Translations under genes and position numbers: made by a program
Shown: positions 25,740-50,315 of the stretch, one piece after another
Layout of the letters: the number at the start of each line of letters is the position of its first letter
How positions within the stretch are numbered: the stretch's first letter is position 1
Notes under the pieces: generated by a model
Databases searched by the model: none
The model's input: only the letters and a program-made list of their open reading frames with translations
Told to the model about the DNA's origin: nothing
DNA from: a virus
Direction: 5' to 3' (one strand)
Length of the DNA stretch: 64,000 nt
IMG/VR virus record: IMGVR_UViG_3300037515_000591
Span: 1 to 64,000 of that record

Positions 25740-25990
25740 GGCCACTGCAATGCGTGATCGGCCGCCACGCATGGACCGGCTGGCGTAAGCACGAGAAGGG
25801 ATGCGGCGACCACGGCTGCGACCGCTACCTACGCCGCTGTACTCGGTGCCCGAGGTGGCAGCGCAAGTTCCCAGGAGGGCGACCGCGCGAGTTCGAGTGC
25901 CGCTGCCTCGCCTTCGCCTGCTGCTCGGACGAATGCCGCCAAGGCCGATGCCCATCCATCCCAGCCGAGCTCAGAGAGGACACCCGATGA
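25736..25990 (+). CDS. hypothetical Cys-rich protein
   Basis: GTG 25736 in GTGA overlap; 12 Cys in 84 aa. Confidence 0.45.
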   Translation: MRPLQCVIGRHAWTGWRKHEKGCGDHGCDRYLRRCTRCPRWQRKFPGGRPREFECRCLAFACCSDECRQGRCPSIPAELREDTR

Positions 25991-26307
25991 GCCAACCACT
26001 CGACGAACAGCAGATGCGAGATGCCTGGGACACGGCTGTACAGGACTGCCTGACCGGGCACGAGAACTGCTCGTACGGCGGCATGACCCCACAGACCGGC
26101 TACTGGCTCCAAGCCGAGGGCTGCCAACTCAACCACGGTGAGAGGTGCGTGTGGTGCGGCGGCGAGGCGGAGACGGGGTTCTCCAACTGGGCCGACGACG
26201 GGTTTTCGATCTACCGGGTTCCTGCGTGTGAGGGGTGCGCGCAGCAGTGGGTGCGGTTCGATGTTCGGTGGGTGCGGAGCATCGCGGACGAGGAGCCCAC
26301 CCCGTGA
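25987..26307 (+). CDS. hypothetical Cys-rich protein
   Basis: ATG 25987 in ATGA overlap; TGHENC, CVWCGG, CEGC motifs. Confidence 0.45.
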   Translation: MSQPLDEQQMRDAWDTAVQDCLTGHENCSYGGMTPQTGYWLQAEGCQLNHGERCVWCGGEAETGFSNWADDGFSIYRVPACEGCAQQWVRFDVRWVRSIADEEPTP

Positions 26308-26738
26308 GCAACTACGCGTACGCCAGCGTCCCAGGCAACGACTCTGCGATCGTCGGCCCCGAAACCGTCAACGGCACCGGACAGGTCTACCTCCACGCCG
26401 ACGACCTCTGCTTCCTCAGCAACGAGGAAGCCCGCGAACTCGGGCGCGCGCTGATCGAGGCCGCCGACTACGCGAAGGCCGTGCAGAACGAGAAGGAGAA
26501 CTGGCCGGGCGGCGGACCGCCCAAGTCTGTACTCGACGTCGCGTGGACCGATCCGCAGTGGCGTTCCGCTGGCCCGGACGGCGACCCCGACACCGCGTGC
26601 AGCGCCTCTCACCGCCCAGACCCCCGCAGCACCAGCCCCCGGAGCGTTGCCCGTTGCACGCGGGGCTGCGGCCACTGCGGGGCGCACGCCGGGGCCGACT
26701 TCGACGGAAGGTCGTACCAGTGGGAGGACACGCGATGA
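26304..26738 (+). CDS. hypothetical protein
   Basis: GTG 26304 in GTGA overlap; 144 aa. Confidence 0.45.
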   Translation: MSNYAYASVPGNDSAIVGPETVNGTGQVYLHADDLCFLSNEEARELGRALIEAADYAKAVQNEKENWPGGGPPKSVLDVAWTDPQWRSAGPDGDPDTACSASHRPDPRSTSPRSVARCTRGCGHCGAHAGADFDGRSYQWEDTR

Positions 26739-26854
26739 CCGTCACGCTGCGACTCGTCGTCGAGACGTGCTGCGCCTGCCCCAACCAGTGGGACGCCTGG
26801 ACCGTCGACGGCCAATACCTTGCATGTCAACTATGTTCGCGAATAATGTTGTGA
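26735..26854 (+). pseudogene. 5' fragment of a small CxxC gene, truncated at an AT-rich junction
   Basis: MTVTLRLVVETCCACPNQWDAWTVDGQYL, then an abrupt drop in GC at about 26820 and a stop after 10 more codons. Confidence 0.5.
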
Positions 26855-26866
26855 CACAATGGAACT

Positions 26867-27064
26867 GTGACCGACTACAGCCAGCGACTCAAGAGGGCCC
26901 GCGCCGCCTATGACAGAGCGCGCTCCGCCTTGTTTGCAGAGATCAAGGAAGCGCTCGAAGCCGAAGACGGACCAACCGTCTCCCAGATCGCACGCGACGC
27001 CGATTTCACCCGCGAGTACATCGCCAAGATTCGCGATGGCCAGGGACCGAAGGAGACGCGATGA
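26867..27064 (+). CDS. small HTH DNA-binding protein associated with HNH cassette
   Basis: 65 aa; coiled-coil N-terminus then TVSQIARDADFTREYIAKIRDG; paralog-like to ORFs 53123 and 34817. Confidence 0.55.
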   Translation: MTDYSQRLKRARAAYDRARSALFAEIKEALEAEDGPTVSQIARDADFTREYIAKIRDGQGPKETR

Positions 27065-27624
27065 GCGGACGTGTCTGCGCAGTAGACGCATGCGAAAGGC
27101 CGCGCCATCGCCGCGACTGGTGCGTTATGCACCACAGCCGCTGGAAGCGGACGGGGAACCCGCTTGGCGCGCGAACCAGCCCCGACGTGCGGTTCTGGGC
27201 GAAGGTCGACAAGCGCGGTCCGATGTCGGAGCACCGCCCGGACCTCGGTGCATGCTGGGTGTGGACTGGCGGCAAGGATCGCCTCGGGTATGGGCACTTT
27301 TGGCTGGACCGCAGCCACGTGCTCGCCCATCGGTTCGCATACGAACTGCTGGTGGGCCCAATCGCGGGGAGTCTAGAGATGGACCACTTGTGCCGGGTTA
27401 GGCACTGCGTTAACCCGCACCACCTCGAACAGGTAACTCACCGGGTGAACACTCTGCGCGGCACGTGCCCTTCAGCGCAGGCGGCACGGGTGACCCACTG
27501 CCCACAAGGGCACGCGTACAACGAGGAGAACACCCGCATCTATCAGGGGCGACGGTACTGCCGTGAGTGCAGCCGTGAAGCGAGCCGCCGCTACAAGGCC
27601 TCTAAGCGGGCGGAGCGGGAGTGA
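27061..27624 (+). CDS. HNH endonuclease
   Basis: CWVWTGGKDRLGYGHFW...AHRFAYELLVG...EMDHLCRVRHCVNPHHLEQVTHRVN plus CPQGH...CRECS zinc ribbon. Confidence 0.85.
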   Translation: MSGRVCAVDACERPRHRRDWCVMHHSRWKRTGNPLGARTSPDVRFWAKVDKRGPMSEHRPDLGACWVWTGGKDRLGYGHFWLDRSHVLAHRFAYELLVGPIAGSLEMDHLCRVRHCVNPHHLEQVTHRVNTLRGTCPSAQAARVTHCPQGHAYNEENTRIYQGRRYCRECSREASRRYKASKRAERE

Positions 27625-27689
27625 TCACGCTGACGGAGTTCCTACGCCGGACGGGCCTGCGACTCGCACCAGACGCGGTGGTGAGCTGA
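27621..27689 (+). pseudogene. possible 3' remnant of the split gene (22 codons)
   Basis: GTG in GTGA overlap with HNH stop; VITLTEFLRRTGLRLAPDAVVS; its TGA overlaps the next ATG (TGATG). Confidence 0.35.
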
Positions 27690-28027
27690 TGAGTACCGAG
27701 TGGATGACGCCCGAGCAGATCCGGCAACACCGCGCCGCCGAGATCATGGAAGGCCCGCTCGGCCAAGCCATCTACGACGTCATCATCTGGACACGGAAGC
27801 AATGGCCACCCATGCGGTCCGATGACGAACTGTGGCTCAACCCCACCGACCACGGCGCCACCGTGCTGATCGGCGGCCGGGTGCTCGGCTACGAAGTGTG
27901 CGCCTCCGAACAGGTGCCGCCCGGCAAGGCGCTGATCTACTGCAAGGCCCTCAGCGCGTACGTGGGCGACGGGCAGATGCCGGACGGCCGGTACATGCTG
28001 GTGCGACTCCCGGAGATCACGCTGTGA
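27689..28027 (+). CDS. hypothetical protein
   Basis: ATG 27689; 112 aa. Confidence 0.5.
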   Translation: MSTEWMTPEQIRQHRAAEIMEGPLGQAIYDVIIWTRKQWPPMRSDDELWLNPTDHGATVLIGGRVLGYEVCASEQVPPGKALIYCKALSAYVGDGQMPDGRYMLVRLPEITL

Positions 28028-28326
28028 GCGACCGCATTCCACTCGACCCCGACCAGGCCATCGCCTTCGACAAGGCGACAGAGAACCGCCGCGAATACAT
28101 CCGAGCGGAAAGACTCGACCAGCTGGCCGACGGTGGCGAGTCCGTGCACTACCCGGGCTGCCCTGAATGCGGCGTGCCGGCGAAACACGTCGTGTGGTCC
28201 ACGTACGACCAGGGTCCGGGCGGTGTGCTGGAGATCGATTTGGGTACGTGCGGGCATCGGTTCACCGTGAGCCCGGTACCAGCACGCTTCGACCCAGACG
28301 GCTTCTGGTGGCACTCGGAAGACTGA
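28024..28326 (+). CDS. hypothetical zinc-ribbon-like protein
   Basis: GTG in GTGA overlap; CPECG...CGH; last gene of the island, ends 9 nt from the portal stop. Confidence 0.5.
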   Translation: MSDRIPLDPDQAIAFDKATENRREYIRAERLDQLADGGESVHYPGCPECGVPAKHVVWSTYDQGPGGVLEIDLGTCGHRFTVSPVPARFDPDGFWWHSED

Positions 28327-28335: not shown

Positions 28336-30390
28336 TCACTCCCAGCGGGCCACGAACGTGCCCCTGCACCGCACGCCGCCCTCGCACCGCAGATAGCCGC
28401 CCGCACCATACGCAGCCCGCACCGCGTCCAAGTCGTCGAACTCCGTGCCGTCGATCTCAGAGCACGGGTCACACACCCGGCTGTCGTTCTTCTCGCTCGC
28501 GAAATACCGGGCAGTCGGCGCAGCGGCCAACGTCGCCACCCGGCCCGCGTTCTGCGCCCGATGCAACGCACCCCCAAGCTGGTCACGCCGGAACCAATTC
28601 TTCAACCCCTTCAGGAACCGGGTGACCTTGCCCGCCACACCCTCACCGTCCGCACCCGGCGTCAGCAGACGCAACGCCTCACGCCCCGCAGACCCGGCAA
28701 GATCAGCAGCCAGCAGAGCAGCCGTCGCCGCGGCGATCTCCACCAACTCCGACCCGAACGCGTTCGTCAACGACCGGCTCAAACGCGGCGGCTTCACCTT
28801 CACACCCTGCTCGGCAGCCTCCGCCACCATCTGCGCGGCAGCAGCCTTCGCCATGTCGGCGAGCGCACCCCGCAGCACCTTCGCCGCCACATCCGAGTCC
28901 ACACTCAGATCAGCGAGCGCCTCAGTATCACCCGCATCCACCGCGGTCTCGATCTGCGCGGCGAGCGCCTCAACCTGCGCCTCCGCGACCGGCTCCCACG
29001 CCTCCAACAGCCCAGCCAGCGCCTCCTCGAACTGGACCCGCACCCGCTCCAACGCATCGTCATCAGCCTGCGCACGCACCCGACCGTGCTCCAACACCCG
29101 GTTGTACGACGGCTGCCCGGCAGGCAACGCGAACGGCACATGGTGATGCAAGTCCAGACGGGCCGCCGGCGCGGGCACAACCGGAGCCTGCTGAGGCGCC
29201 CGAGCAGGGGCCGGCGCCCGGTACCCCAGATCCGGCAAGCCCAAATACTCCGACGCCAACCGAGGATCCGCGCCCCCATCCACCAGCGTCTTCCACGCCA
29301 CCGTCTTCGACTCCGCCTCCTTCACCTCCAACTCCCGGTCCGTCGGAGTCGGATCCACAAAGTCGAACTCCAGGGCACGCGCCGCATCCTTGCCGTACAG
29401 CGGTAGCAACTGGTGGTTCAGCGCGCCGCGGATCGCCCGCAGATCCGGGACGACCAGCCAGCGGGAGAACATGACATCGGCGGCTTCCATGTTGGCGCGG
29501 TTCGCGTCATCAACTGTGCCGAGCATCGGCTTGGGGAAGCCGAGCCCTTCGCGGATGACCTCGCGGGACGCCGCGTTCGACTCGACGAACTGCATGTCGC
29601 GCTGCGTGTACTTGCGGTCCTTCCACACCCCGTGCTCCAGGAACGCGACACGGTGGGCGTTGGCAACACCCTTGTGCTGCTCGTCCCAGCGGGCCTGCAA
29701 CTGGTCCCACTCGGGGTCGGAGAGGACGGAGGGGAGTTCGATGATCCCGCCCGGCTCCGCGCTGTTCATGAAGAAGTTCCGCTGCCATTCGGCCGCGAAC
29801 TTGTTCGAGTCGATCTCGGCGAGCAGCGGCTGAATCGGCGAGATCCCCCGGTACGGATCCCTCGGGTGCGGCGTACGAATGAAGATCACGTCTTCCAGAC
29901 GCAACGCCACCTCCTCACCCCCCGGCCCCGTGTACATGTACCCCGACAGGAACTTCGTGGGATGCGGCACCGGCTGGATACGGTCCGGGCGCACATTCCA
30001 CATCTCCAGCGGCATCGTCGACCGGGCGCTATTCCGGGCGATCACCCACCACGTCTCCCCCGTCAAACCCTTGTGCTGCTGCCCCGCTTCCACGAAAATC
30101 TCGCGGGTGAAGAACGGGTTCGGCTTATTCCACAGGTCGAGCGCGGGATGAACCGCAACTTCCTGCCGGTCCTCCTTCAGCCCAGACTTGGCCTTGCGGT
30201 ACAGATGCCACTCCACCCCGGCCACAGCCTTCGACCAGCGGCTGACGATCGCATGGACGGTGCCCACCGTCTCCATCGCCCGCATCTGCGCCTCAGCACC
30301 GCTGGGTGCCCGCCACGGAATCGACAGCCCGCCACGGGCCGACACGTACGGCACCGGCGTCTTATTCCTCAGGGCACGTAGAGACCTCAC
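28336..30390 (-). CDS. portal protein (HK97 family) fused to MuF-like minor capsid domain
   Basis: HPALDLWNKPNPFF, GETWWV, FIRTPHPRDPYRGISP, FFMNSAEPGG portal motifs; C-terminal FASEKNDSRVCDPCSEIDGTEF MuF-like; GTG 30390 in GTGA overlap after GGAGAAGGGG. Confidence 0.85.
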   Translation of the reverse strand: MRSLRALRNKTPVPYVSARGGLSIPWRAPSGAEAQMRAMETVGTVHAIVSRWSKAVAGVEWHLYRKAKSGLKEDRQEVAVHPALDLWNKPNPFFTREIFVEAGQQHKGLTGETWWVIARNSARSTMPLEMWNVRPDRIQPVPHPTKFLSGYMYTGPGGEEVALRLEDVIFIRTPHPRDPYRGISPIQPLLAEIDSNKFAAEWQRNFFMNSAEPGGIIELPSVLSDPEWDQLQARWDEQHKGVANAHRVAFLEHGVWKDRKYTQRDMQFVESNAASREVIREGLGFPKPMLGTVDDANRANMEAADVMFSRWLVVPDLRAIRGALNHQLLPLYGKDAARALEFDFVDPTPTDRELEVKEAESKTVAWKTLVDGGADPRLASEYLGLPDLGYRAPAPARAPQQAPVVPAPAARLDLHHHVPFALPAGQPSYNRVLEHGRVRAQADDDALERVRVQFEEALAGLLEAWEPVAEAQVEALAAQIETAVDAGDTEALADLSVDSDVAAKVLRGALADMAKAAAAQMVAEAAEQGVKVKPPRLSRSLTNAFGSELVEIAAATAALLAADLAGSAGREALRLLTPGADGEGVAGKVTRFLKGLKNWFRRDQLGGALHRAQNAGRVATLAAAPTARYFASEKNDSRVCDPCSEIDGTEFDDLDAVRAAYGAGGYLRCEGGVRCRGTFVARWE

Positions 30391-30762: not shown

Positions 30763-31398
30763 GTGAATCCACCAGTTCAGGTTGTGTACAAGGGCGTTAC
30801 GTACAAGCGGAATCCCAACAGCGATGACTGGCCCAAGCGCGTGTATTACCAGGCGCCTCGCGGCAGCGGACGCGGATACCTGCACCGCGACGTCTTCACC
30901 GACGCCAATGGTCCGATCCCGGACGGCATGCACGTCCATCACCGAGACCACGACCCGTTCAACAACGACCCGTCGAATCTGACGCTCCTCACCCCGAAGC
31001 AGCACCGCCAAGAGCACAGCAAGAAGTTCGACGAAGCACGCATGAAGATCTTCAGGGAGACCACTCTCGCAGCTGCGGCGAAATGGCATGGAAGCGAAGA
31101 AGGCCGCGCTTGGCATCGGGAGCACGGCCGCAAGACCTGGGAGGGGCGCGAGACGAGCACCTTCACATGCCCTGAGTGTGGGGAGGAACACCAGGGGCAC
31201 TTCCTGGCGCGCACCGGCCCTGAACGGTACTGCTCAGGGCGTTGCAGGCAGCGAGCGGAATGGCGAACGAAGAAGTACTGGGAAGATGCCACCTGCCCCA
31301 TGTGCTCGGCAGCGTTCAAGCGACAGCGGGGACGTAGTGAGACTTGCTCGCGCAGTTGCGGGGCAAAGCTCAATTGGCAGCGGCGTGCGTCCTCATAG
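30763..31398 (+). CDS. HNH endonuclease, antisense to late operon
   Basis: GMHVHHRDHDPFNNDPSNLTLLTPKQHRQEH; C-terminal CPECG/CSGRC/CPMC/CSRSC zinc fingers; sampled GC about 57%. Confidence 0.8.
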   Translation: MNPPVQVVYKGVTYKRNPNSDDWPKRVYYQAPRGSGRGYLHRDVFTDANGPIPDGMHVHHRDHDPFNNDPSNLTLLTPKQHRQEHSKKFDEARMKIFRETTLAAAAKWHGSEEGRAWHREHGRKTWEGRETSTFTCPECGEEHQGHFLARTGPERYCSGRCRQRAEWRTKKYWEDATCPMCSAAFKRQRGRSETCSRSCGAKLNWQRRASS

Positions 31399-32838
31399 CC
31401 AACGGACCCTGGTCCGGGGACCGACAAAATAGGCCAAAAGCAACGCATCTGCGTTATCCGGGCTTCGGCCGATTCGCTTCTTCGTCTCATCCTTCGGCTC
31501 CACCACCGTCCGCCCCGCGCTGTCCGTCGTGTACTTCGGCGCCGTCAACTGCGACACCAACCGCTCCCGATCCTTCTCCTCCAGCCCCGACATGTCCCAC
31601 GCCAGATCCTCCGACAACTGCCGGCCCACCTCCCACCACAACTGCGACCGCAGATTCTTGAACCGGCCCGGATTCGACGACGCCTCCGACACGTTCACCC
31701 CCACCACCTGTGCCCGGTGCAAGCTCTGCGACTGCTTCTCCCGCAGTGAGCCGACCACGCCCCACCCGATCCCGATCGCATCCACCTTCACGATCGCGGC
31801 CTGCGACTGGTTGATCGCCTCCACGATCCGGGCCACAGACCTCACCGGATCCCGCTCACGGAACCGCCACTCCCGGCCCACCACCACACCACGCCGCTCA
31901 CGAATCACCGTCTCGTCACCGCCAGCACCCATATCGATCCCGAGCTCCACCGGCGTGAGCTGACCTGGCGGCCACGGGATATCGCGCGGCCGGCAGCAGG
32001 CACGGACTTTCGACAGGCGCACCACCCCGTCCTCCGCGTCCGACGGGAAATCCCCGAGGACCTTGCTGATGTAGGTGGGCGACTCCTCCCCGTACTCCAG
32101 CCGCATCTCCTCGACGTAAGCGTGGGAGACGAGCATCTCCCGCAGCTCGTCCGGGACTTCCTCGCCCGTGAAGTTGGGGGTGTCGAACGCCGAGATCTTG
32201 ATGGTGTTCCAGCGTCCACTCCCGCAGACGCGAGCGAACTCAGTCCCCGGGTCGTCCGGATTGCCGACAGCGAGAATGCGGCAGTGCTCGCCCGTGGCGA
32301 TCGCGCGCGCAGCGGTCCAGAACTGCTTGTTCACGCCGCACGCTTCATCCAAGATCACAAGCACGTACTTCGCGTGGATGCCCTGGAAGGCATGCGGGTT
32401 GTAGTCGGACGGTTTGCGGCCGAAAGCGATCAGCCGCTTCCCCAGCTTCCAGTCCGTCTCATTGATCCGCCCCAGAAACGGACGGCCCCGCGCCTCGGCC
32501 TTCGTGAACGCCCCGTTGATCTCAGACCACAGGATCGCCTTCACCTGATCCCCGGTCGGCGCAGTCGTCACCACCCGCGCCTCACCCGGCGGATGAATGT
32601 CCAGCCACCACGCCACCAACTGCGCAGCCAAGAAGCTCTTGCCGACACCGTGGCAGGACTGCACGGCCGTCTGCCGGTGGTCGCGCACCGACTCCGCAAT
32701 CTGGATCTGCTTCGACCACAGATGCGTGCCCAGCTTCTCCCGCGCCCACAAGCCCGGGTCGTCGACGTACTGCTCCGCGACAGCAGCCTCATCCGCCTGA
32801 TCCTCCAGGCGACCTGCGGCAAGCGTGATCGCGTCCAC
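31393..32838 (-). CDS. terminase large subunit
   Basis: HGVGKSFLAA Walker A-like, VLVILDEACGV Walker B; nuclease half with IDMGAGGDETV; 481 aa. Confidence 0.9.
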   Translation of the reverse strand: MDAITLAAGRLEDQADEAAVAEQYVDDPGLWAREKLGTHLWSKQIQIAESVRDHRQTAVQSCHGVGKSFLAAQLVAWWLDIHPPGEARVVTTAPTGDQVKAILWSEINGAFTKAEARGRPFLGRINETDWKLGKRLIAFGRKPSDYNPHAFQGIHAKYVLVILDEACGVNKQFWTAARAIATGEHCRILAVGNPDDPGTEFARVCGSGRWNTIKISAFDTPNFTGEEVPDELREMLVSHAYVEEMRLEYGEESPTYISKVLGDFPSDAEDGVVRLSKVRACCRPRDIPWPPGQLTPVELGIDMGAGGDETVIRERRGVVVGREWRFRERDPVRSVARIVEAINQSQAAIVKVDAIGIGWGVVGSLREKQSQSLHRAQVVGVNVSEASSNPGRFKNLRSQLWWEVGRQLSEDLAWDMSGLEEKDRERLVSQLTAPKYTTDSAGRTVVEPKDETKKRIGRSPDNADALLLAYFVGPRTRVRWL

Positions 32839-37048: not shown

Positions 37049-37081
37049 AGGCCTCGCCGTCGGGGGGACGCGGCGAGGCCT
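37049..37081. terminator. bidirectional terminator between convergent units
   Basis: perfect 11-bp stem AGGCCTCGCCG/CGGCGAGGCCT, 11-nt loop, between stops at 37033 (+) and 37133 (-). Confidence 0.65.
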
Positions 37082-37132
37082 CCAGGGGGTGCCGGGCGCT
37101 ACCTGGCGCGCAGCCTTCAGTGTGGCAGGCGG

Positions 37133-37273
37133 TCAGCCTTTCGGCTTGCCGGGGACGGGCTTCTTGGCCTTCGGGTAGTAGCCGCCTCGCGACGCCTGGT
37201 ACTCGGTCGGCTGCTTCTCGTAGTCCGGGATCCGGTTGGGGTCGCGGGTCGGCCAGTTCTTGGGCAGCGCCAT
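37133..37273 (-). CDS. small basic peptide (46 aa)
   Basis: ATG 37273 after AGGAG; MALPKNWPTRDPNRIPDYEKQPTEYQ...KKPVPGKPKG. Confidence 0.4.
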   Translation of the reverse strand: MALPKNWPTRDPNRIPDYEKQPTEYQASRGGYYPKAKKPVPGKPKG

Positions 37274-37359
37274 GATGGGGCTCCTGTCTCGCGTGTCGGG
37301 ATGGGACCGGGGCGGCCGGTTAGCTGGCAGGCAGGCGGCCGCCCCGGGGTCTTGTGGGC

Positions 37360-37608
37360 TCAGCGGCCCCAGCAGTTCGCCAGCAGCAGCGCCAGGAAAA
37401 ACAGCAGCGCCCAGAACGAACCCGACGGCAGACACCCGTCGCCGCGGGCTTCCGCATGCACGTGACGGACCTCGTCGCCACCGGCCGGCGCGAGCCCTCC
37501 GTGCGCGTCCCGGCGATGGGCGGCGCCTTCGTCCATGGCGTCCGCTTCGCGGGCGCGGCGCTCCGGGGAGACCGCGTCACAGGCCCGACAGAAGTACTCG
37601 TACGGCAT
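37360..37608 (-). CDS. small C-terminally membrane-anchored protein
   Basis: 82 aa; CRAC motif, C-terminal FWALLFFLALLLANCW. Confidence 0.45.
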   Translation of the reverse strand: MPYEYFCRACDAVSPERRAREADAMDEGAAHRRDAHGGLAPAGGDEVRHVHAEARGDGCLPSGSFWALLFFLALLLANCWGR

Positions 37609-37638
37609 CAGGGTCTCCGGGGGGCAGTAGGCGCGCGT

Positions 37639-38709
37639 CTACGATGACTTGACTAGACGGCCGTTGATCACGTCGTACCTGTGCACCCCTGGGCCGTTCC
37701 CCTTCGGGGTGCGTACGCCGGGCCGTACGTTGATGTCGGCCTTGTCGAGAAGGTCTCGCACGGCCTTGGTGTCCCCGAGACCGAAGCGTTCACGAACCGT
37801 AGTGAGCAGTACTCCCCTGTCGTCGCCTACTAGCCGGGCAACGGCCGCTCTCACCTGGTCCGAGCTTGCGGTAGCAGCATCGAACGAATCGTCTCCCGTA
37901 TCGGCGAAGACCTTGCGAGAGTGCCCAGGCCCAGGGCACGGGCTGATGAAGCCGCGTTGTTCCAAGGCGTCCAGCAGCTTCGCGGCCCTGGAAAAGCCGA
38001 TCTTTAGACGTTGCTGGAGCATGGTCGCCGAGGCGATGCCGGTAGAGGTGACCAACTCTGCTGCCTGCGCCAAGAGGTCGTCTGTCTGCCTCTTGCGCAG
38101 ATCGAAAGCCTCGGCCTCGCTCGGGTTGTGACTTGCTACGAATTGCTTGATGTCTCGCGTGTACTTGAACCACTCGCTCCGTCGGACTCGCGCGTCCTTG
38201 AAGCGGTCGTGCAGCGCGGCTTCGAGTTCCCTGCCACCAGCCAGGGTCAGCGCGACGTTCTCCTTCGGCTGGGCCAGAGACGACAGGCGTCCGCCCAAGT
38301 TCGTCGAATAGCCGATCTTGACCCGGTCTCCGTTCGCGATGAAGTAGACGACCGGCTCGTGAGGTCCGCTGAATACGGGCTGAACGGCTTTACCGAAGAC
38401 TGGCTGCTGGACTGTCCCTGATGCGGCAGCCGCCAGCATCTCCGGGACGATGGAGATGGCCACCTGCATCCGGTGCCGCTGGCACAGCGCTACGGGAACG
38501 GTGGACGTCACGATGTCGGTGCACGGCTGCCCGCTGTCGGCCGCAAGGCAGCGCGCGCTAAGGTCGGTCATGTCGATCTCCTTTGCAGATCGGCCATGCC
38601 CCGGGACCGTTGGCGCGGTCGCCGGGGTCAGTCTTTGGTTGTGTCTCAAGTATCCCATGTGCACCACCTGTTGAGAGCCATCCGGCATGCCTAGAAGCGC
38701 GTAGATCAT
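37639..38709 (-). CDS. T5orf172 (GIY-YIG-related) domain - FtsK gamma domain fusion protein
   Basis: VVYFIANGDRVKIGYSTNLGGRLSSL...EAALHDRF...SEWF; ASATMLQQRLKIGFSRAAKLLDALEQRGFIS; ATG 38709 in ATGA overlap. Confidence 0.75.
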   Translation of the reverse strand: MIYALLGMPDGSQQVVHMGYLRHNQRLTPATAPTVPGHGRSAKEIDMTDLSARCLAADSGQPCTDIVTSTVPVALCQRHRMQVAISIVPEMLAAAASGTVQQPVFGKAVQPVFSGPHEPVVYFIANGDRVKIGYSTNLGGRLSSLAQPKENVALTLAGGRELEAALHDRFKDARVRRSEWFKYTRDIKQFVASHNPSEAEAFDLRKRQTDDLLAQAAELVTSTGIASATMLQQRLKIGFSRAAKLLDALEQRGFISPCPGPGHSRKVFADTGDDSFDAATASSDQVRAAVARLVGDDRGVLLTTVRERFGLGDTKAVRDLLDKADINVRPGVRTPKGNGPGVHRYDVINGRLVKSS

Positions 38710-39449
38710 GTGGTCTTCACCTCCTCTCCAACCCCGGAGAGCGGCGGAGAATCGGCGCTCTGACCTGCATCTCCACCGGAATCCACAGGCGACTCTCCAT
38801 CGGAGGGGAGGAGGGCCTCGACGTCGCCTCGGCGGACCCCTGAGCGGCCCGCGACTCGGCCCAGGCGGAGGCTGCGATGGACGGGCACATCGAAGGCCCG
38901 GAGTAGGGCCCTCAACTCGGCGTCCGTACGCCCCTCGTGCCCAGGCAGTTCGCGCATCGCCGGGTACAGCTCGCGGAGGTGGATTCCGGGCCGCTTGCCG
39001 ATGGTGTCGAGGAGCCATTGGGCGAGCGCGTGTCGGGGGTCTGCGGGGGCGTCCTCGGCGGCCTCCGGCTGGGTCTCGTCGGGGGTACGTGCGGTGCGCC
39101 GCTCGGTCCATGCGGTTGCCCGGTCGAGGTACTCCTTCGGGATGAACAGGAGCACCGCGGCCAGCCAGGCGAGGATGATGCCGGCCGCGGTCCAGCCGCC
39201 GTAGAAGCCGACCGCCCACACGGCGACGACGTGGACGCCCCACGCCCAGCCGGTGCCGAAGCGGGCGGCGATCCACGAGCTCGGCCCGCACACACCCAGG
39301 AGCAGCGCGCCGAGGCTGCCGGGCGGCTCGGCCGGCGCCTCATCGACGACGGGCTCGGTCTCTTCGTCCAGCTCATCGACCACCTCGTCGAGGTCCTCCT
39401 CGACGGGCGCCGGCTCGGGCTGGTGTTTCCGCAGGCTGAAGTACGTCAT
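38706..39449 (-). CDS. membrane protein with acidic N-terminus and cytoplasmic winged-helix-like C-terminus
   Basis: ATG 39449 in ATGA overlap; TM segments VHVVAVWAVGFYGGW and IILAWLAAVLLFI; tail GIHLRELY...LRALLRAFDVPV...GRSGVRRGDV. Confidence 0.55.
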   Translation of the reverse strand: MTYFSLRKHQPEPAPVEEDLDEVVDELDEETEPVVDEAPAEPPGSLGALLLGVCGPSSWIAARFGTGWAWGVHVVAVWAVGFYGGWTAAGIILAWLAAVLLFIPKEYLDRATAWTERRTARTPDETQPEAAEDAPADPRHALAQWLLDTIGKRPGIHLRELYPAMRELPGHEGRTDAELRALLRAFDVPVHRSLRLGRVAGRSGVRRGDVEALLPSDGESPVDSGGDAGQSADSPPLSGVGEEVKTT

Positions 39450-39850
39450 GCCAGGTTCGCCCCCAGGTCGGCGATCGCGTCGGAGATGTACGCCCACGTG
39501 CCGCCTGCACCTGCGGCGATGTACCAGAAGAAGATCCCCAGGACGCCGATCTGCTTCGTCGTCAGCCGCTTGAACAGAATGAAGATCGCCATGGACAGGG
39601 CGAGCGCGGGCATCGTCACGCCGGGGATCACATCGTTGACGGTCGCGATGAGGCTGCCCACGAAGTCCGGGACGAACTTGAAGAAGCCTCCGGCCGCCTT
39701 ATAGGCGGACCCGGCGAGCATCGACAGAATCAGGGTGGGCCACCAGCCGAGCGGCTTCAACCGGCCGCCGCCGGGGATCCCGACGAGCAAGAGCACGGTG
39801 AGGACGACGGCCAGGCCGACGGTGCCGAGGTTGCCGAACACGCTGTTCAC
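39446..39850 (-). CDS. four-TM membrane protein
   Basis: 134 aa, four long hydrophobic segments. Confidence 0.6.
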   Translation of the reverse strand: MNSVFGNLGTVGLAVVLTVLLLVGIPGGGRLKPLGWWPTLILSMLAGSAYKAAGGFFKFVPDFVGSLIATVNDVIPGVTMPALALSMAIFILFKRLTTKQIGVLGIFFWYIAAGAGGTWAYISDAIADLGANLA

Positions 39851-39859
39851 GACGGGTTC

Positions 39860-40570
39860 CTAAGGCTGGTAGCCGGTGCCGTACAGGGCGATACCGGCGA
39901 TGACGGATGAGACGGGGACGGCAGCAGCCCAGGCGACGGGCCACGCCCACGTGCGGGAGCGCCGGTACAGGGCGCAGGCGCAGAACCCGAGGCCGTACAG
40001 GGCGAATGCGGAGGGGCTGGCCCAGTGGCCGTCGGCGTACCAGGCGGCGGTGTCGGTGCCCCAGTCGACCCAGCCGAGCGGCCAGCCTGCTGCGGCGGCG
40101 GTGGCGTGGTAGATGAGCCAGCGGATGCGGTTGGGGATGCGGTCGTAGGCGTCGAGGAGGGATTGGCGGGGCGGGTGGGGCTGGTCGTCGCGGTATGTGG
40201 GGCGGGCGGTGCGGCGCTTGGGCGGCCGTGGGGCGGGGGCCCGGGTCGGGCCGGGGTCCGCGGGTTCTTCTACTGGCTCCGGTTCGTCCTCGGCGGGCTC
40301 CTCGTCGGCCTCGCCGGCGTCGTCGGCGGTGAGGTCGGTGGGCTTGCGGCTCCACCAGTTCGGGAGCCGTGGCGCAGCCCGGCGCGTGGGCGGCCTGGGC
40401 TGCTCGTCGCCGTACAGGTCGTCCCACCACGCGTCTTCCGCTGCGGGCCGGTATCCGTCCGACGGCGGGCCGGGCGGCATGGGTGGTGGCGTGGCGTCCG
40501 GGCCGTCGATGAGACGGCGGAGACTGCCGCGGATACGGAGCTCGTCAGCGCCGGGCTTCGTCTCGCCCAT
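39860..40570 (-). CDS. Pro-rich N-terminus / C-terminal multi-TM protein
   Basis: ATG 40570 (TGATG overlap); first 42 aa paralogous to ORF 40710-40958; C-terminal WLIYHATAAAAGW..., FALYGLGFCACALY, AAAVPVSSVIAGIALYG. Confidence 0.55.
   Translation of the reverse strand: MGETKPGADELRIRGSLRRLIDGPDATPPPMPPGPPSDGYRPAAEDAWWDDLYGDEQPRPPTRRAAPRLPNWWSRKPTDLTADDAGEADEEPAEDEPEPVEEPADPGPTRAPAPRPPKRRTARPTYRDDQPHPPRQSLLDAYDRIPNRIRWLIYHATAAAAGWPLGWVDWGTDTAAWYADGHWASPSAFALYGLGFCACALYRRSRTWAWPVAWAAAVPVSSVIAGIALYGTGYQP
40445..40570 (-). repeat. copy 1 of ~126-nt duplicated 5' coding segment
   Basis: about 75% nucleotide identity by eye to 40833-40958. Confidence 0.6.
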
Positions 40571-40710
40571 CACAGCCCCCACCACATCTGAACGGCGATC
40601 ACGACGGCCATGGCCAGGGAGACGCGGGAGAGGAAACGGGCGTCGGAGGCAGGCGCGCGCCATCCGGCGGCAGCGACGGCCAGGAACCCGCCGAGGAGGA
40701 GGTAGCCCAT
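40570..40710 (-). CDS. 46-aa membrane peptide (not in ORF track)
   Basis: own translation MGYLLLGGFLAVAAAGW...LAMAVVIAVQMWWGL; TGATG overlaps at both ends. Confidence 0.4.
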   Translation of the reverse strand: MGYLLLGGFLAVAAAGWRAPASDARFLSRVSLAMAVVIAVQMWWGL

Positions 40711-40958
40711 CACGCGCCCCTCAGGTAGCGGTTGACGGTCTCCGGCTTGGCGACTGATTCCGGGACGTGCGCGGGGGGCGGGGGTGTGGCGTTGCTGTCG
40801 AGGATGTCGTCGAGCCAGTCCCGCGGGCGCGCGGGCCGGTAGCCGTCAGGTGGCGGCCCAGGCGGCATGGGTGGGGGTTCGACTGTGGGGCCGTCGACGA
40901 GCTTGCGGAGACGGTCCTGGATACGGCGCTCGTCGGCGTCCGGCTTCGCCCCGCTCAT
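40710..40958 (-). CDS. small Pro-rich protein, paralog of the N-terminus of ORF 39860-40570
   Basis: KPDADERRIQDRLRKLVDGPTVEPPPMPPGPPPDGYRP vs KPGADELRIRGSLRRLIDGPDATPPPMPPGPPSDGYRP. Confidence 0.5.
   Translation of the reverse strand: MSGAKPDADERRIQDRLRKLVDGPTVEPPPMPPGPPPDGYRPARPRDWLDDILDSNATPPPPAHVPESVAKPETVNRYLRGA
40833..40958 (-). repeat. copy 2 of ~126-nt duplicated 5' coding segment
   Basis: see 40445-40570. Confidence 0.6.
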
Positions 40959-41974
40959 GACCGCACCTGCCGGGCTTCGCGCAGGTACCGCTTCGCGGTC
41001 GCGGGACTCACGTCCAGGAGCTCAGCGACCTGAGCTGAGGTGAGCCCCGAGTCCTGAGCCACGAGCTCAGCCACCCGCGCCACGCTCTGAGCCCGCTGGG
41101 CCGACTGTGCGGTGAGGTGTGCGGAGAACCCGAAGGCGTGGGCCTCGGGCTCGGCAGCCTGGGCCTGAGGCTCAGGTGCTGCGGCCTGCGACGACGTGAG
41201 AACGATGGGCGCGCCGGACGGGTGAGGCTCAACCATCTGAGCCTCGGGCTCAACCGCCTGAGCCTCGGGCTCGGTGGGCTCATCGCGCCGCGCCTCGGGC
41301 CCTGGCTGAGCTACCTCGATGGCCTGAGCCGCTACCTCATCGAACGCGCGAAGAGACTCGGCAGTTGAGCCGGCCGTCAGGGCGAGTGGCGTACGGCGCT
41401 GGATCTCGGCACGCTTCTCGATCCGCTCCAGGCTGATCTGGAAGTCGGCGTCATCGCGGGCAAGGACGGTGCGCGCTTCAGCCTTGATACGGGCGATCTC
41501 CGCGTCCGCGGCCCGGGTGAGCTGCTCCAGGCCGGCCTCGTGGAGCTGCGCGGTGTACGAGCTGCTGCGCATGACGTCGTGGATCTCGGCCTGCTGCTCC
41601 GGGGTGAGGGCGGCCGGGTCGCGCATCGCGGCGAGCGCGAACACCCACACGATCTTCCCGACGCCCACGACGAACGGCCCAGCGATCGCCTGCCCGCGGG
41701 ATGCTTCGGCTCCGTGGATGACGAGGAGGACGGCGACACCGACGGCGATGGCCCAGCCGGCCAGTGGGGCGGGCCATCGGCGGCCGCCGATGGTGACGCC
41801 CTGGTACTCGGCCCACAGGACGGTGACCCAGCCGATGTCTCCGGCGAGGGCGACGGACAGGCCGAACGGTCCGCTGTGCATGAGGTCGGTGATGGCGTAG
41901 GCGGACCAGATGAGGGAGAGGGCTGCGAGGGCGGCGGCGCCGTAGGTGATGGCGGGCCGACGGGTGGTCTTCAT
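40955..41974 (-). CDS. DUF2637-like four-TM protein with repeat linker and C-terminal HTH
   Basis: ATG 41974; N-terminal TM bundle; EPEAQAVEPEAQMVEP/PEPQAQAAEPEA repeats; C-terminal LTSAQVAELLDVSPATAKRYLREAR. Confidence 0.6.
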   Translation of the reverse strand: MKTTRRPAITYGAAALAALSLIWSAYAITDLMHSGPFGLSVALAGDIGWVTVLWAEYQGVTIGGRRWPAPLAGWAIAVGVAVLLVIHGAEASRGQAIAGPFVVGVGKIVWVFALAAMRDPAALTPEQQAEIHDVMRSSSYTAQLHEAGLEQLTRAADAEIARIKAEARTVLARDDADFQISLERIEKRAEIQRRTPLALTAGSTAESLRAFDEVAAQAIEVAQPGPEARRDEPTEPEAQAVEPEAQMVEPHPSGAPIVLTSSQAAAPEPQAQAAEPEAHAFGFSAHLTAQSAQRAQSVARVAELVAQDSGLTSAQVAELLDVSPATAKRYLREARQVRS

Positions 41975-42105
41975 CGGATCTTCCAGGCGTAGGCGGCGAT
42001 CACAGCGCTGACGAGGAACGGTGCGGGTTGGTCGGTGAGGAGGGCGACGGCGGCGCACACGGTGAAGCCGTAGCGCGCGAGGGGCGTTTGGAAGTGGCGG
42101 CGCAT
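41971..42105 (-). CDS. 44-aa membrane peptide (not in ORF track)
   Basis: ATG 42105 after GGAGG; MRRHFQTPLARYGFTVCAAVALL...VSAVIAAYAWKIR; ATGA overlap with next gene. Confidence 0.4.
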   Translation of the reverse strand: MRRHFQTPLARYGFTVCAAVALLTDQPAPFLVSAVIAAYAWKIR

Positions 42106-42125
42106 CGGGGCCTCCGGGGGTGGGG

Positions 42126-42161
42126 CCGCCGCCCCGCGGGGGGAATGTCGCGGGGCGGCGG
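42126..42161 (-). terminator. strong hairpin opening the membrane module
   Basis: perfect 13-bp stem CCGCCGCCCCGCG/CGCGGGGCGGCGG, 10-nt loop, 13 nt beyond stop at 42174. Confidence 0.55.
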
Positions 42162-42173
42162 CGGTCGGGTGGG

Positions 42174-42386
42174 TTAGCGGGCGCGGTACCAGCCGCCGTG
42201 TCGGTCGCGTTGCCTGTCGGTGTCTTCCCAGGCTTGGCCTTGGCGGGCGGCTCGGGTGGCGCCGTTGTTGCGGTGGCTGCGGCGGCGTTGGCGGGAGGCG
42301 GATGCGGTCGCGGACTCGCGGCCCGGGTATCGGGTTGCTGCGCGTTCGTGGTCGTTGCCGCCGCCGAGGAACTTGGGGAGCCTCAC
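42174..42386 (-). CDS. hypothetical basic protein (70 aa)
   Basis: GTG 42386 in GTGA overlap; Arg-rich, so coding status uncertain. Confidence 0.3.
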   Translation of the reverse strand: MRLPKFLGGGNDHERAATRYPGRESATASASRQRRRSHRNNGATRAARQGQAWEDTDRQRDRHGGWYRAR

Positions 42387-42493
42387 CGGCCGCCGCCTTG
42401 GGTGCCGGTGAGGCAGTGGGCGAGGTTTCGGCATGCCGCGCAGGTCCAGGCGGTGAGGCCGAACCATCCGCCGCAGGTGTCGCACTGGCTCAC
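42383..42493 (-). CDS. 36-aa zinc-ribbon mini-protein (not in track)
   Basis: own translation VSQCDTCGGWFGLTAWTCAACRNLAHCLTGTQGGGR; GTGA overlaps at both ends. Confidence 0.35.
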   Translation of the reverse strand: MSQCDTCGGWFGLTAWTCAACRNLAHCLTGTQGGGR

Positions 42494-42621
42494 AGCGACC
42501 CCCCAGGCGCGCGACGCGGGAGGCTGTCCTCGGGGTGGGGGCGGGGCGCGGGGACCGGGTGACGTTGCGGCATGTCGCCGCCGGGCCGCTGATGCTCGGG
42601 GGTTGGCTGCTGCTCGCTCAT
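42490..42621 (-). CDS. 43-aa Pro-rich peptide (not in track)
   Basis: ATG 42621 in ATGA overlap with upstream stop; weak composition. Confidence 0.25.
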   Translation of the reverse strand: MSEQQPTPEHQRPGGDMPQRHPVPAPRPHPEDSLPRRAPGGSL

Positions 42622-42893
42622 GCGTTCACCGCCCGCAGTTCGGCCGCGTACTGGCCTTGCGTCATCCCGTAAGTCGGGGGCGTGGAAGCGAGAAGGTACT
42701 GCCGCTCGCGGACGCTGCTCGTGTTCCGCTCGGCCTCGCCGATGAGGGTGTTCTCGGTCATCGGGGCGCCCGGGTTGGTGTCGAGCTGGTCGGCGATGCT
42801 GGCGGTTTGGGTATGCATGCGGGTGCGTTCGGTGTCGGTGACTTGCCCGGTCGCCGGGGTGGGCTGTTGCGGTTGCCGCTGGATACGATCCAC
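42618..42893 (-). CDS. hypothetical protein, first gene of leftward unit
   Basis: GTG 42893 ten nt after AGGAG; 91 aa. Confidence 0.45.
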   Translation of the reverse strand: MDRIQRQPQQPTPATGQVTDTERTRMHTQTASIADQLDTNPGAPMTENTLIGEAERNTSSVRERQYLLASTPPTYGMTQGQYAAELRAVNA

Positions 42894-42986
42894 GTGGTCA
42901 TCTCCTGTGTTGGCAGGTGGTGGCTGGCCCCGGCCGGGCTCTCACAACCGACCGGGGCCGTTCTGTTGGTGCTGTACGAACGTAGC

Positions 42987-43013
42987 GACTTATTGCGCTG
43001 AACGCAATAAGTC
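42987..43013. promoter_or_regulatory. operator-like palindrome
   Basis: perfect 11-bp arms GACTTATTGCG / CGCAATAAGTC, 5-nt spacer, 16 nt upstream of ATG 43029 and next to its GGGAGG. Confidence 0.6.
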
Positions 43014-43028
43014 TGGGAGGGTGGCCCC

Positions 43029-43586
43029 ATGCCCGAAGACACGCCACAGGGAGAGGAGCAGCGCGAGATGCTGTCCTTCACCGAGGCTGCCGAACGGCTC
43101 GTCAATGACGGCATCGCCCTGAACATGACCGCCGAAGGACTACGGCGACTCGCCCGTGACCGAAACTCCGGCTGGCCCATCGGCCCCAATGACTACCGGG
43201 TCGTCGGCAAGACGCGGATGCTCCCCTACGAACTGCTCGCGCCGTACATGCGGGAGCGCTATGGGAAGCGGCGAGGGCGTGGCCCGGACACCAAGAAGCG
43301 CAGCCCCAAGTCCCAGTCGCAAGGAGATCCCATGTCCACGACCGTTGATCCGCGTATCGCGATCCTGTCCGCCCTGAACGATCCGCCGTACAACGAGACG
43401 GCCGAGAAGCGGTGCGTGCCGTGGGATGAAGCGGCGCAGCTCCTCAACGCCTACCGGGCGGCCGTCATCCGTGAGGCCGCTGACGCTGTGGCGCAGTTGA
43501 TCGCCGATGGAGAGCACGACCCGGACTGTCTCGTCGACGAGCTGCGCCACCTGGCGCGCAAGACGCCCGAGGTGCGGGATGTCTGA
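43029..43586 (+). CDS. HTH DNA-binding protein (excisionase/MerR-like N-terminus) with possible nested in-frame product
   Basis: LSFTEAAERLVNDGIALNMTAEGLRRLARD; internal AAGGAGA-N5-ATG at 43332 in the same frame. Confidence 0.55.
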   Translation: MPEDTPQGEEQREMLSFTEAAERLVNDGIALNMTAEGLRRLARDRNSGWPIGPNDYRVVGKTRMLPYELLAPYMRERYGKRRGRGPDTKKRSPKSQSQGDPMSTTVDPRIAILSALNDPPYNETAEKRCVPWDEAAQLLNAYRAAVIREAADAVAQLIADGEHDPDCLVDELRHLARKTPEVRDV

Positions 43587-43890: not shown

Positions 43891-43927
43891 CACCGGGCGC
43901 CCGCTCTGGGGGAGCGGGCGCCCGGTG
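43891..43927. terminator. 16-bp perfect hairpin
   Basis: CACCGGGCGCCCGCTC tgggg GAGCGGGCGCCCGGTG. Confidence 0.55.
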
Positions 43928-49389: not shown

Positions 49390-50243
49390 GCGGAGTCTCC
49401 TTGCTCGCGGAGTTGGGCGGCGATGGCGGCCCAGCCGGCGACCTTGGCGTCGGTGCCGGTGAGGGTGGTTTGGCCCCCGCCGGAGAGCGGGACGAGGAAG
49501 GCGCCTTGGGTGGGCCGGGTGGCCCGGTCGGCGGCTTTTTTGGCGTCGTCGCGGATCCACTTCTGCCAGGCGTCGGGCCAGCTTTTGCGGCGGGTGCCGG
49601 TGGATCGGTAGTGGCTGACGAACTGGGCGGTGGAGTGCTCGATGTCGAGACCGGGGTATGTGGCTGCGACCCAGCGACGCATCGAGTCGGTTAGCTGGAA
49701 GCCGTCGATCTCGATCGGAGTGGGCGCGGGAGGGCCGTCAGGCCGGGCGGTCGGAGCCGTCGGCCGAGGCTGGTTCGAAGAGGCCTCAGCCCCCTCTTTC
49801 TGCGTTCCTTCTGGTGTATCTGCGTTAACTGCGTTATGGGGTGCGGATTCTGCACCCCTACCGGTACGGATTCCGTACCCCCCCGGTACGGAATCTGTAC
49901 CCCTGGGGGTGCCGTTTCTGGACCGGTACGGATTCCGTACCGGTACAGAATCCGTACCCCCCTTACGGGTGTGGCCCTTGGCGCCGGGGAGGCGGTAGCG
50001 GGTCTCTCCGTGCGGTCCCTTCTGGCCGAGCACGATCTCCAGTTCGCCGGATTCGAGGAGGGCGTCGACCGCCTTGATCACGGCTGTCCGTGACGCCTGT
50101 GAACGACGGATCAGGAAGGTGGTCCCGGCGTACGCCGAGACGTCCGGCCCGCTCGCCTTGTCGGCGATGGCGAGCAGCACGAGTCGCGCCGTGTTCTTGG
50201 AAGCGGAGTGCTCCCATACCCAGTCCTGTGCGTCGAGGCTCAA
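49386..50243 (-). CDS. replication initiator/organizer-like protein (N-terminal winged HTH)
   Basis: ARLVLLAIADKA...TFLIRRSQASRTAVIKAVDALLESGELEI; C-terminal FVSHYRSTGTRRKSWPDAWQKWI; TTG start after AGAAGGA; iterons in the linker-coding region. Confidence 0.6.
   Translation of the reverse strand: MSLDAQDWVWEHSASKNTARLVLLAIADKASGPDVSAYAGTTFLIRRSQASRTAVIKAVDALLESGELEIVLGQKGPHGETRYRLPGAKGHTRKGGTDSVPVRNPYRSRNGTPRGTDSVPGGYGIRTGRGAESAPHNAVNADTPEGTQKEGAEASSNQPRPTAPTARPDGPPAPTPIEIDGFQLTDSMRRWVAATYPGLDIEHSTAQFVSHYRSTGTRRKSWPDAWQKWIRDDAKKAADRATRPTQGAFLVPLSGGGQTTLTGTDAKVAGWAAIAAQLREQGDSA
49841..49959. repeat. six 17-bp palindromic iteron-like repeats (putative ori)
   Basis: GGTRCRGAWTCYGYACC-type copies at 49841, 49864, 49886, 49909 (degenerate), 49926, 49943; two are perfect GGTACGGATTCCGTACC; flanked by 3x CTGCGTT at 49801-49836. 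Confidence 0.65.
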
Positions 50244-50282
50244 CGGTCCTTCTCTCGGTCGTGCCGTTCGGAGGTACGAGGC

Positions 50283-50306
50283 GGGGGCGCCGCGGTGGGC
50301 GCCCCC
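50283..50306 (-). terminator. hairpin between the 261-aa gene and the replication gene
   Basis: perfect 9-bp stem GGGGGCGCC/GGCGCCCCC, 6-nt loop, 10 nt beyond stop at 50316. Confidence 0.5.
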
Positions 50307-50315
50307 GATCCGTGG

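Follow-up and report, generated by a model that had tools for sequence, protein, structure and literature searches.

Conjugative plasmids of Streptomyces solve the problem of movement through the mycelium with TraB and Spd proteins. To our knowledge, the movement of a phage infection through the compartmented mycelium is largely unexplained. SpdB2 of plasmid pSVH1 is an oligomeric four-transmembrane (four-TM) protein that forms pores and binds double-stranded DNA (dsDNA) and peptidoglycan, and it gives T7 lysozyme access to the wall in E. coli (Thoma et al., 2015, mBio, PMC4447253). The same study noted SpdB2 homologues in actinophages and suggested that they aid the spreading of phage DNA (PMC4447253), and the idea that SpdB-type phage proteins act in spread is thus already in the literature as a remark. 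Described here is a block of ten minus-strand genes, p1 to p10 (37133-42105), in a 64,000-nucleotide (nt) stretch of viral DNA (the window: positions 1 to 64,000 of IMG/VR record IMGVR_UViG_3300037515_000591, a contig of 71.4 kb of which about 7.4 kb lies beyond the window). The block is one variant of a conserved cassette of many Streptomyces prophages, and it probably derives from the machinery for hyphal transfer of plasmid DNA. In the literature searched, there was no account of a multi-gene cassette of this kind, of its three variants, of the winged helix common to its members or of a TraA-TraB pair inside chromosomal prophages.

Gene calling based on GC content at third codon positions (GC3) recovered the ten open reading frames (ORFs) at the sizes given in a preliminary description made from the letters alone. 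Relatives from Streptomyces chromosomes and IMG/VR contigs are cited as L-numbered loci, L048 being phage VWB. From the head of the block to its end, with sizes in amino acids (aa), the genes are as follows.

41971-42105, minus strand: p1, hydrophobic peptide of 44 aa from the gene call, with homologues in phage Kromp (gp80, 67%), L013 (74%) and L014 (55%).
40955-41974, minus strand: p2, SpdB-family head protein of 339 aa with a four-TM SpdB_N domain, a long helix, an EPEAQ-repeat linker and a C-terminal helix-turn-helix (HTH).
40710-40958, minus strand: p3, soluble Pro-rich protein of 82 aa, a duplicate of the p5 N-terminus.
40570-40713, minus strand: p4, hydrophobic peptide of 47 aa (46 aa from the second Met) from the gene call.
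39860-40570, minus strand: p5, 236 aa, with a Pro-rich acidic cytoplasmic N-terminal half and a Trp-rich hydrophobic C-terminal part.
39446-39850, minus strand: p6, polytopic membrane protein of 134 aa.
38706-39449, minus strand: p7, 247 aa, acidic at its N-terminus, with a helical membrane segment and a C-terminal winged-helix tail (residues 138-211).
37639-38709, minus strand: p8, soluble protein of 356 aa with a T5orf172/GIY-YIG-like domain, an FtsK gamma domain and the tail winged helix.
37360-37608, minus strand: p9, tail-anchored protein of 82 aa with an N-terminal CxxC and a TM segment at 59-77.
37133-37273, minus strand: p10, basic peptide of 46 aa with an isoelectric point of 9.9.

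All ten ORFs are intact and have GC3 values of coding type. At six of the nine junctions there are overlaps of 1-4 nt, and the remaining junctions are gaps of 9, 30 and 86 nt. The block sits inside a phage genome, as the preliminary description had it. The window encodes a portal protein (28336-30285, Pfam match 4.8e-55), a large terminase (31393-32838), an HNH endonuclease and a tape measure protein of 1255 aa. Its early genes include WhiB, a weak RecT match, an exonuclease, Phage_zn_bind_8 and DUF4326, and the window as a whole has 67% GC with coding of the kind found in Streptomyces siphophages.

The head protein p2 provides the link to conjugation. Its four hydrophobic segments, EPEAQ-type repeats and C-terminal HTH (HTH families at 1e-4) agree with the preliminary description, which had likened the membrane domain to DUF2637. 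The latter assignment did not hold, since none of 30 p2-family members (p2 and 29 relatives) matched Pfam DUF2637 (PF10935) at E<=1, and SpdB_N (PF27080) fits instead, being present in precomputed Pfam annotation of p2 (faintly) and of many homologues. A hidden Markov model of the p2 family aligns colinearly with pIJ101 SpdB. Comparison of the two families by hhalign gave 95.8% probability and an E-value of 7.5e-9 over 109 columns (p2 residues 37-146), an alignment that spans TM2-TM4 and the following helix. Judged by these profiles, p2 is a true SpdB relative. The p2 family is narrow, with 90 clusters at 50% identity among 1.84 billion, and its homologues number hundreds, in Streptomyces genomes and metagenomes. 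Neither p2 nor the p7 tail had a tblastn match among phages, and the p2 and p7 family profiles found nothing useful among PDB sequences. In the plasmid collection, p2 matches 12 large Streptomyces plasmids only. On one of these, pCQ3, the p2 homologue lies directly upstream of the annotated traA-traB. The pSAM1 homologue has a GntR-family regulator gene opposite it and a gene annotated as type IV secretion system downstream, and this plasmid also carries a terminase gene. In some homologues, SpdB_N is fused to T5orf172 in one protein, and therefore domains of the p8 type are tied to the membrane head and p2 is linked with p8.

In prophages, the SpdB-type gene stands after WhiB/Zn-finger early genes and before the HNH, terminase and portal genes. 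The head gene is constant, while three alternative fillings are found behind it. Type A, that of the window, consists of p5-like, p6-like and p7-like genes and p9; it is recognised by direct similarity in L010, L011 and L013, in a partial copy in L038, and by profile comparison in L008, L009 and L024. The order of head gene, p5, p6, p7 and p9 is kept in L010, L011 and L013, and by profile comparison also in L008 and L009. Type B, the most frequent, encodes a 169-aa four-TM protein followed by a membrane-anchored protein with a winged helix that shares 54-59% identity with the p8 tail; in many cases a p10-like peptide is present too. In type C (L034 9965-14531; L030 5911-9477; L046 10001-12783), TraA and TraB follow the SpdB-type gene. 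The cassette of L034 (S. cupreus PSKA01) comprises the SpdB-type gene, plasmid_TraA (6.5e-30) and plasmid_TraB (2e-214, Walker A motif GMTGAGKS), and ends with a small TM protein and a TM protein carrying the restriction-endonuclease domain Mrr_cat (8.7e-26). Its flanks are collinear with the window, with g84, g83, g80, g79 and g70 upstream and g47 and a 61%-identical portal gene downstream. L030 has the same TraA-TraB pair, and L046 has an FtsK_SpoIIIE protein (1.5e-12) before terminase and portal. The motor-less types are the common ones, and many species keep their gene order, with protein identities of 30-70%. Most variants lack p8, while the membrane core is constant. The block is a conserved phage cassette and has a relative in the long-known phage VWB.

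Two proteins of the block, p7 and p8, share a homologous tail of about 75 aa (hhalign 93%, E 2.6e-7), as had been noticed from the letters. AlphaFold2 models this tail as a winged helix in both proteins, with predicted local distance difference test (pLDDT) values of 94-96; in p7 it reaches about 96 with an H-S-H-H-S-S fold. The same winged helix is found in Kromp gp85 and VWB gp26. Foldseek searches with p7 gave weak matches, mostly winged-helix DNA binders, and no significant match in the PDB, and the 192 members of the p7 family are all unnamed. In p8, residues 1-109 are unmodelled and are followed by a T5orf172/GIY-YIG-like domain (117-195), an FtsK gamma domain (205-258) and the tail winged helix (283-349). 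T5orf172 and FtsK gamma, both named in the preliminary description, match Pfam above the gathering scores. The gamma domain is a true one, with an FtsK_gamma (PF09397) match at 8.4e-18 (64.3 bits vs a cut-off of 30.6) and Foldseek matches to 2ve8/2ve9 at probability 1.0, with 36-40% identity, measured against the Pseudomonas aeruginosa FtsK gamma domain, and a target TM-score of 0.65-0.76; the XerD-gamma complex 5dcf is also among the matches. The preceding domain matches MUG113 (1.1e-9, 39.2 bits vs a cut-off of 22.3) and T5orf172 (1.6e-6, 29.0 bits vs a cut-off of 20), and its predicted GIY-YIG-like structure matches the GIY-YIG protein of phage MooMoo (3.4e-5, Foldseek).

The name of a motor-less spread locus, given to the block in the preliminary description, is supported as ancestry. 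The p2 homology, the domain content, the conserved synteny, the TraA-TraB pair in the same slot of relatives and the absence of a motor from the window are shown; complex formation, DNA binding and action in spread are what we infer of its function. Tentatively, and at somewhat less than an even chance, the block is regarded as a phage-borne tra/spd cassette of Streptomyces without TraB that serves the spread of phage DNA via a membrane complex. In this scheme, the SpdB-family four-TM protein p2 would assemble in the hyphal membrane with p5, p6, p7, p9 and the small peptides. The complex would present DNA-binding heads to the cytoplasm, namely the HTH of p2, the winged helix of p7 and, in soluble form, the T5orf172, FtsK-gamma and winged-helix domains of p8. 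Its most likely job would be to hold phage or prophage dsDNA at the membrane or the septal cross-wall and to aid its passage into neighbouring hyphal compartments, resulting in virion-independent spread like that of plasmids. The translocase would be supplied in trans, either as TraB of a resident plasmid or an actinomycete integrative and conjugative element (AICE), or as a host pump of the FtsK type. The occurrence of the winged-helix tail once in membrane-anchored form (p7) and once on an FtsK-gamma protein (p8) counts for this scheme.

Several observations weigh against a role in spread. The C-terminal domain of SpdB2 of pSVH1 contacts TraB, and p2 is without that domain. PF27080 and PF27079 (the SpdB C-terminal domain) occur together in all 120 listed pIJ101-type SpdB proteins, and PF27079 was not found in p2 or in nearly all its homologues. 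Intramycelial spreading in pSVH1 needs SpdB2 together with TraB (PMC4447253). The absence of a P-loop motor, reported earlier, was borne out: pCQ3 TraB has no tblastn match in the window, no credible ORF of the window contains a Walker A motif, and the FtsK_SpoIIIE motor domain matches none of p1-p10; about 7.4 kb of the source contig is outside the window that was searched for a motor. Only p2 matches plasmid proteins, as p1 and p3-p10 have no match among proteins of the pIJ101 record or of the fetched transfer regions of pCQ3 and pSAM1, and this part of the earlier spread reading found no support, while the SpdB homology of p2, its context on pCQ3 and pSAM1 and the TraA-TraB pair in a collinear prophage all speak for that reading. 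NCBIfam gave no TraA or Spd match, and no further Spd or Kil protein (SpdA, KilB and others) was recognised in the block. In a search made without a defined TRS motif for this family, no cluster of clt/TRS-like or KOPS-like motifs was detected near the block; GACCCGGA is scattered, and no non-coding 8-mer cluster was found nearby. The tail winged helix was also considered as a remnant of TraB, and this was rejected, as it matches neither the TraB-type proteins of L030, L034, L042, L046 and pCQ3 nor ORFs of pIJ101, pSAM1 and pZL12.

The main rival, unlikely on present evidence and still of some weight, is superinfection exclusion or anti-conjugation defence, in which a membrane complex made by the prophage would stop or trap phage DNA on its way in, or plasmid DNA delivered by TraB, at the membrane, with the T5orf172 (GIY-YIG-like) domain as a possible nuclease. 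The cassette is a self-contained unit with its own divergent promoter-operator and strong terminator, one slot takes any of three fillings, in the manner of defence or moron hot-spots, the L034 version closes with a membrane-anchored Mrr_cat domain (8.7e-26), and the p8 domain matches a protein of a GIY-YIG nuclease family. Against these points, PADLOC defence models gave no confident match (the best were 0.0018-0.04 on short stretches), p2 is homologous to a protein that aids DNA passage and does not block it (PMC4447253), the slot of relatives holds a functional-looking TraA-TraB pair, and in L002 and L004 the cassette has the same orientation as the packaging genes behind it. An improbable explanation is permeabilisation of the envelope or cross-walls in lytic growth, where a holin-like SpdB pore and its partners would open membranes or septa late and the DNA-binding domains would be regulatory. 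The holin-like behaviour of SpdB2 in E. coli with T7 lysozyme (PMC4447253) and the location of the cassette between early and packaging genes would suit such a function; four DNA-binding domains are hard to fit to a lysis accessory, and a separate lysis-like cluster is present at 98-1543.

The two other explanations concern parts or the past of the block. The least probable of all is that p8 acts on host FtsK/XerCD, its free gamma domain activating XerD or competing with FtsK and so serving dimer resolution, integration or interference with chromosome segregation, with the membrane proteins not directly involved. The good conservation of the gamma domain, at 36-40% identity and with 5dcf among its matches, invites this explanation, as does a Pfam scan of about 30 window proteins in which no integrase was found, the contig extending about 7.4 kb beyond the window. 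Yet the scan covered just these proteins of the window, most cassette variants have no p8 while their membrane core is constant, and the T5orf172-SpdB_N fusions tie p8-type domains to the membrane complex. There is likewise little chance that the block is a decaying relic of an ancestor that had TraB, its genes no longer serving a common function. The motor is absent and p3 is a partial duplicate of p5, as would be expected of a remnant, but ten intact ORFs with coding-type GC3, the commonness of motor-less types with an order conserved across many species, and p2 and p7 homologues in hundreds argue against decay.

It is a rather doubtful generalisation that temperate Streptomyces phages carry a conjugation-derived 'movement' apparatus, in which a SpdB-type pore, its membrane partners and tethered winged-helix readers would pass DNA from compartment to compartment without virions, as movement proteins do for plant viruses, and that sister prophages with TraA-TraB could both conjugate and infect. 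A cassette with a SpdB-type head, and with TraA-TraB in sister prophages, points to direct exchange between conjugation systems and phages in Streptomyces. The cassette is open to test as a candidate, either for the spread of phage DNA without virions or for an exclusion system of a new kind. The chromosomal prophages with TraB (L034, L030 and L046) are candidate elements for a double mode of transfer, by conjugation and by infection. A context is also gained for unannotated families, namely p5, p6, the p7 tail winged helix, p9 and g64, a small gene directly upstream of the block.

The smaller members of the block are related to each other or to genes at corresponding positions elsewhere. The Pro-rich N-terminus said to be common to p3 and p5 was found in both (56% identity over 61 aa). 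A 137-nt direct repeat of 76% identity (40443-40579 and 40831-40967) underlies it and is a partial gene duplication within the cassette. The p5 protein belongs to the same family as the product, 178-216 aa long, of the gene after the SpdB-type gene in L008, L009, L010, L013 and L038 (hhalign 100%), and L011 has a p5-like stretch at the corresponding position (tblastn). The p6 protein matches phrog_38677 (8e-33), has homologues 62-69% identical in L010, L011, L013 and L038, and is related to the 169-aa family of L008 and L009 (hhalign 93.6%); a tblastn search of phages gave one weak match only, TurkishDelight gp99. The tail anchor of p9 and the basic nature of p10 are as first described. The p9 protein belongs to phrog_32136, and homologues 62-72% identical to it close the cassette in L010, L011 and L013. 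Peptides 46-56% identical to p10 follow the short cassette type in L002, L016 and L027.

The boundaries of the block involve the following features.

43029-43586, plus strand: g67, divergent protein of 185 aa from the gene call, a possible regulator.
42894-43028, unstranded: divergent promoter-operator region, proposed from a palindrome and a leader stem-loop.
42618-42893, minus strand: g66, 91 aa, from the gene call, first ORF of the probable operon; the first gene of relatives starts similarly.
42490-42621, minus strand: g65, weakly supported ORF of 43 aa from a low-score gene call.
42174-42386, minus strand: g64, small basic protein of about 70 aa with motifs GRESA, GQAWED-DR and WYR, directly upstream of the cassette.
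42125-42162, minus strand: upstream hairpin with a perfect 14-bp GC stem, dG -35.8 kcal/mol and the loop ACAUUCCCCC on the coding strand.
37049-37081, unstranded: downstream hairpin between the convergent p10 and g53, with a perfect 11-bp stem, dG -30.5 kcal/mol and a C-rich loop on the coding strand.

The block had been described as bounded by hairpins. Both hairpins are real, and perfect hairpins with arms of at least 10 bp number just 16 in the window. The downstream one is likely a bidirectional terminator. The upstream one is probably not the start of the transcription unit; g64 and two further ORFs lie beyond it. Because g64 and the divergent promoter region are upstream of this hairpin, the unit probably starts at about 42.9 kb and ends with the terminator at 37.05 kb. 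The upstream hairpin has no U tract. Seven other loci, pSAM1 and two TraB-type loci among them, have a hairpin with a similar loop and a perfect 12-13-bp stem upstream of their SpdB-type gene, at a distance of at most about 260 nt in L008, L011, L025, L030 and pSAM1, 512 nt in L046 and 813 nt in L023. The copies have the loop (T)ACAYCCCCC(AG) in common, and several stem positions are changed on both sides (C-G, G-C, A-T, T-A); pairs were counted by hand from the stem ends, the MAFFT alignment being out of structural register. This conserved element may be a U-less terminator or attenuator, or a candidate protein-binding site. A perfect 16-bp inverted repeat with a 5-nt loop at 43891-43927 is the strongest hairpin of the window, and its loop is C-rich on the coding strand like those of both hairpins flanking the cassette.

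Homologues of g64 (56-65% identity) occupy the matching position in L008, L009, L010, L011, L013 and L024, with a 51% match in L044, and its GTG start at 42386 agrees with them. No Pfam family was matched by g66. The promoter region contains an 11-bp perfect palindrome at 42987-43013, GACTTATTGCG-N5-CGCAATAAGTC, and a GC-rich leader stem-loop at about 42928-42960, GGCCCCGGTCGG...CCGACCGGGGCC. The palindrome is phage-specific. In L002 and L004 the layout is the same, but the palindrome differs from that of the window and the leader hairpin is almost identical; elsewhere L011 has the leader hairpin, L034 a palindrome and L013 a shorter palindrome. Its position alone suggests that g67 may regulate the operon. 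In L004, a homologue of about 90 aa (35% identity) occupies the matching divergent position, and in L034 a 92-aa ORF with a similar start, recognised by eye, does so. GntR-family genes occur near the transfer genes of pCQ3, pSAM1 and pIJ101; g67 matches no Pfam family at E<=0.01, and no divergent GntR-type Kor/TraR repressor was recognised.

The remainder of the window offers some further observations. Its DNA has no close match among deposited phages. Searched against 50,697 phage records, the DNA of the block gave nothing at high identity and two short low-identity matches (Kromp and OnionKnight). A tRNA scan and an Rfam scan of the whole window were both empty. The region 98-1543 resembles a lysis cluster. 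It encodes a protein 66% identical to the product of a phage ZL12 gene that carries a peptidoglycan-binding domain according to its note, and behind it two small hydrophobic proteins. The 17-bp palindrome GGTACGGAWTCYGTACC has six matches in the window, against 0.19 expected by chance; five of these form an array at 49840-49958 with a spacing of about 22 bp, within a 630-bp gap (49683-50315), and may represent a candidate replication origin or operator array. Seventeen plus-strand ORFs (22026-28326) separate the portal gene from two large minus-strand genes (18466-21656), the homologues of which come directly after the portal gene in the relative L031, and the region looks like a 6.3-kb opposite-strand insertion within the structural operon.

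Known systems resemble the block in different respects. The plasmid-phage pZL12 has an FtsK/SpoIIIE-like gene adjoining phage structural genes; only a peptidoglycan-binding protein and the tape measure are common to it and the window, and it has no detectable homologue of p2 or of the tail. A close plasmid-phage kinship with pZL12, the nearest tape-measure relative, was dropped as these two genes are all they have in common. Membrane proteins of prophage superinfection exclusion are similar in being small and belonging to a self-contained prophage unit, but no sequence relation to them was found, and p2 is homologous to a DNA-transfer protein. The p8 protein shares a true gamma domain with FtsK, and the gamma domain of FtsK and the C-terminal winged helix of TraB are motif readers of dsDNA pumps; in p8, unlike in these, the gamma domain is detached from any motor and occurs together with T5orf172 and a second winged helix. 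Several phage families with stand-alone gamma domains, mostly without known function, are already listed in PHROGs.

Among phages, the temperate VWB encodes a type-B cassette with a different head (gp24-gp27, 16326-19846) upstream of its packaging genes. VWB gp24 resembles p2 in its N-terminal membrane domain, EPEVE-repeat linker and HTH-like C-terminal end, whereas its head is DUF2637 (1.2e-35) and not SpdB_N; it is probably the protein that Thoma et al. (2015) cited as the SpdB2 homologue of VWB. In gp25, the C-terminal part is a member of the 169-aa four-TM family (L004_169; 2e-30) and not of the p5 or p6 family, gp26 is membrane-anchored with the tail winged helix as in the window (2.2e-13), and the region of gp27 is one of small ORFs with a weak p10 match. 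Unlike the window, VWB is without p8 and p9. Since gp24 heads a cassette of the same architecture, DUF2637 and SpdB_N occupy equivalent positions, although homology between them was not detected (hhalign of the p2 family against gp24, 1%). As annotated, gp25 and gp26 overlap each other and have long Arg-rich extensions at the N-terminus; their starts look too far upstream because the conserved parts begin well within each ORF. In Kromp, the p1-like gp80 and the p7-like gp85 lie around three membrane proteins; a link of Kromp gp82 to SpdB_N was not made (hhalign 1%). The SpdB2 homologue of phiC31 cited in the literature was not detected with p2-family or pIJ101-SpdB profiles.

Plasmids come closest at the head gene. 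pCQ3 resembles the window in its p2 homologue upstream of traA-traB, and pSAM1 in its p2 homologue and terminase gene, and both differ from it in that the window is without TraB. Compared with pIJ101 SpdB and pSVH1 SpdB2, p2 has an acidic EPEAQ linker and an HTH where PF27079 stands, and its gene is located in a phage with no TraB in the window. Like them, however, it has a homologous N-terminal four-TM domain with the following helix, its gene stands at the head of an operon with small membrane proteins, and its homologue in relatives adjoins TraA-TraB.

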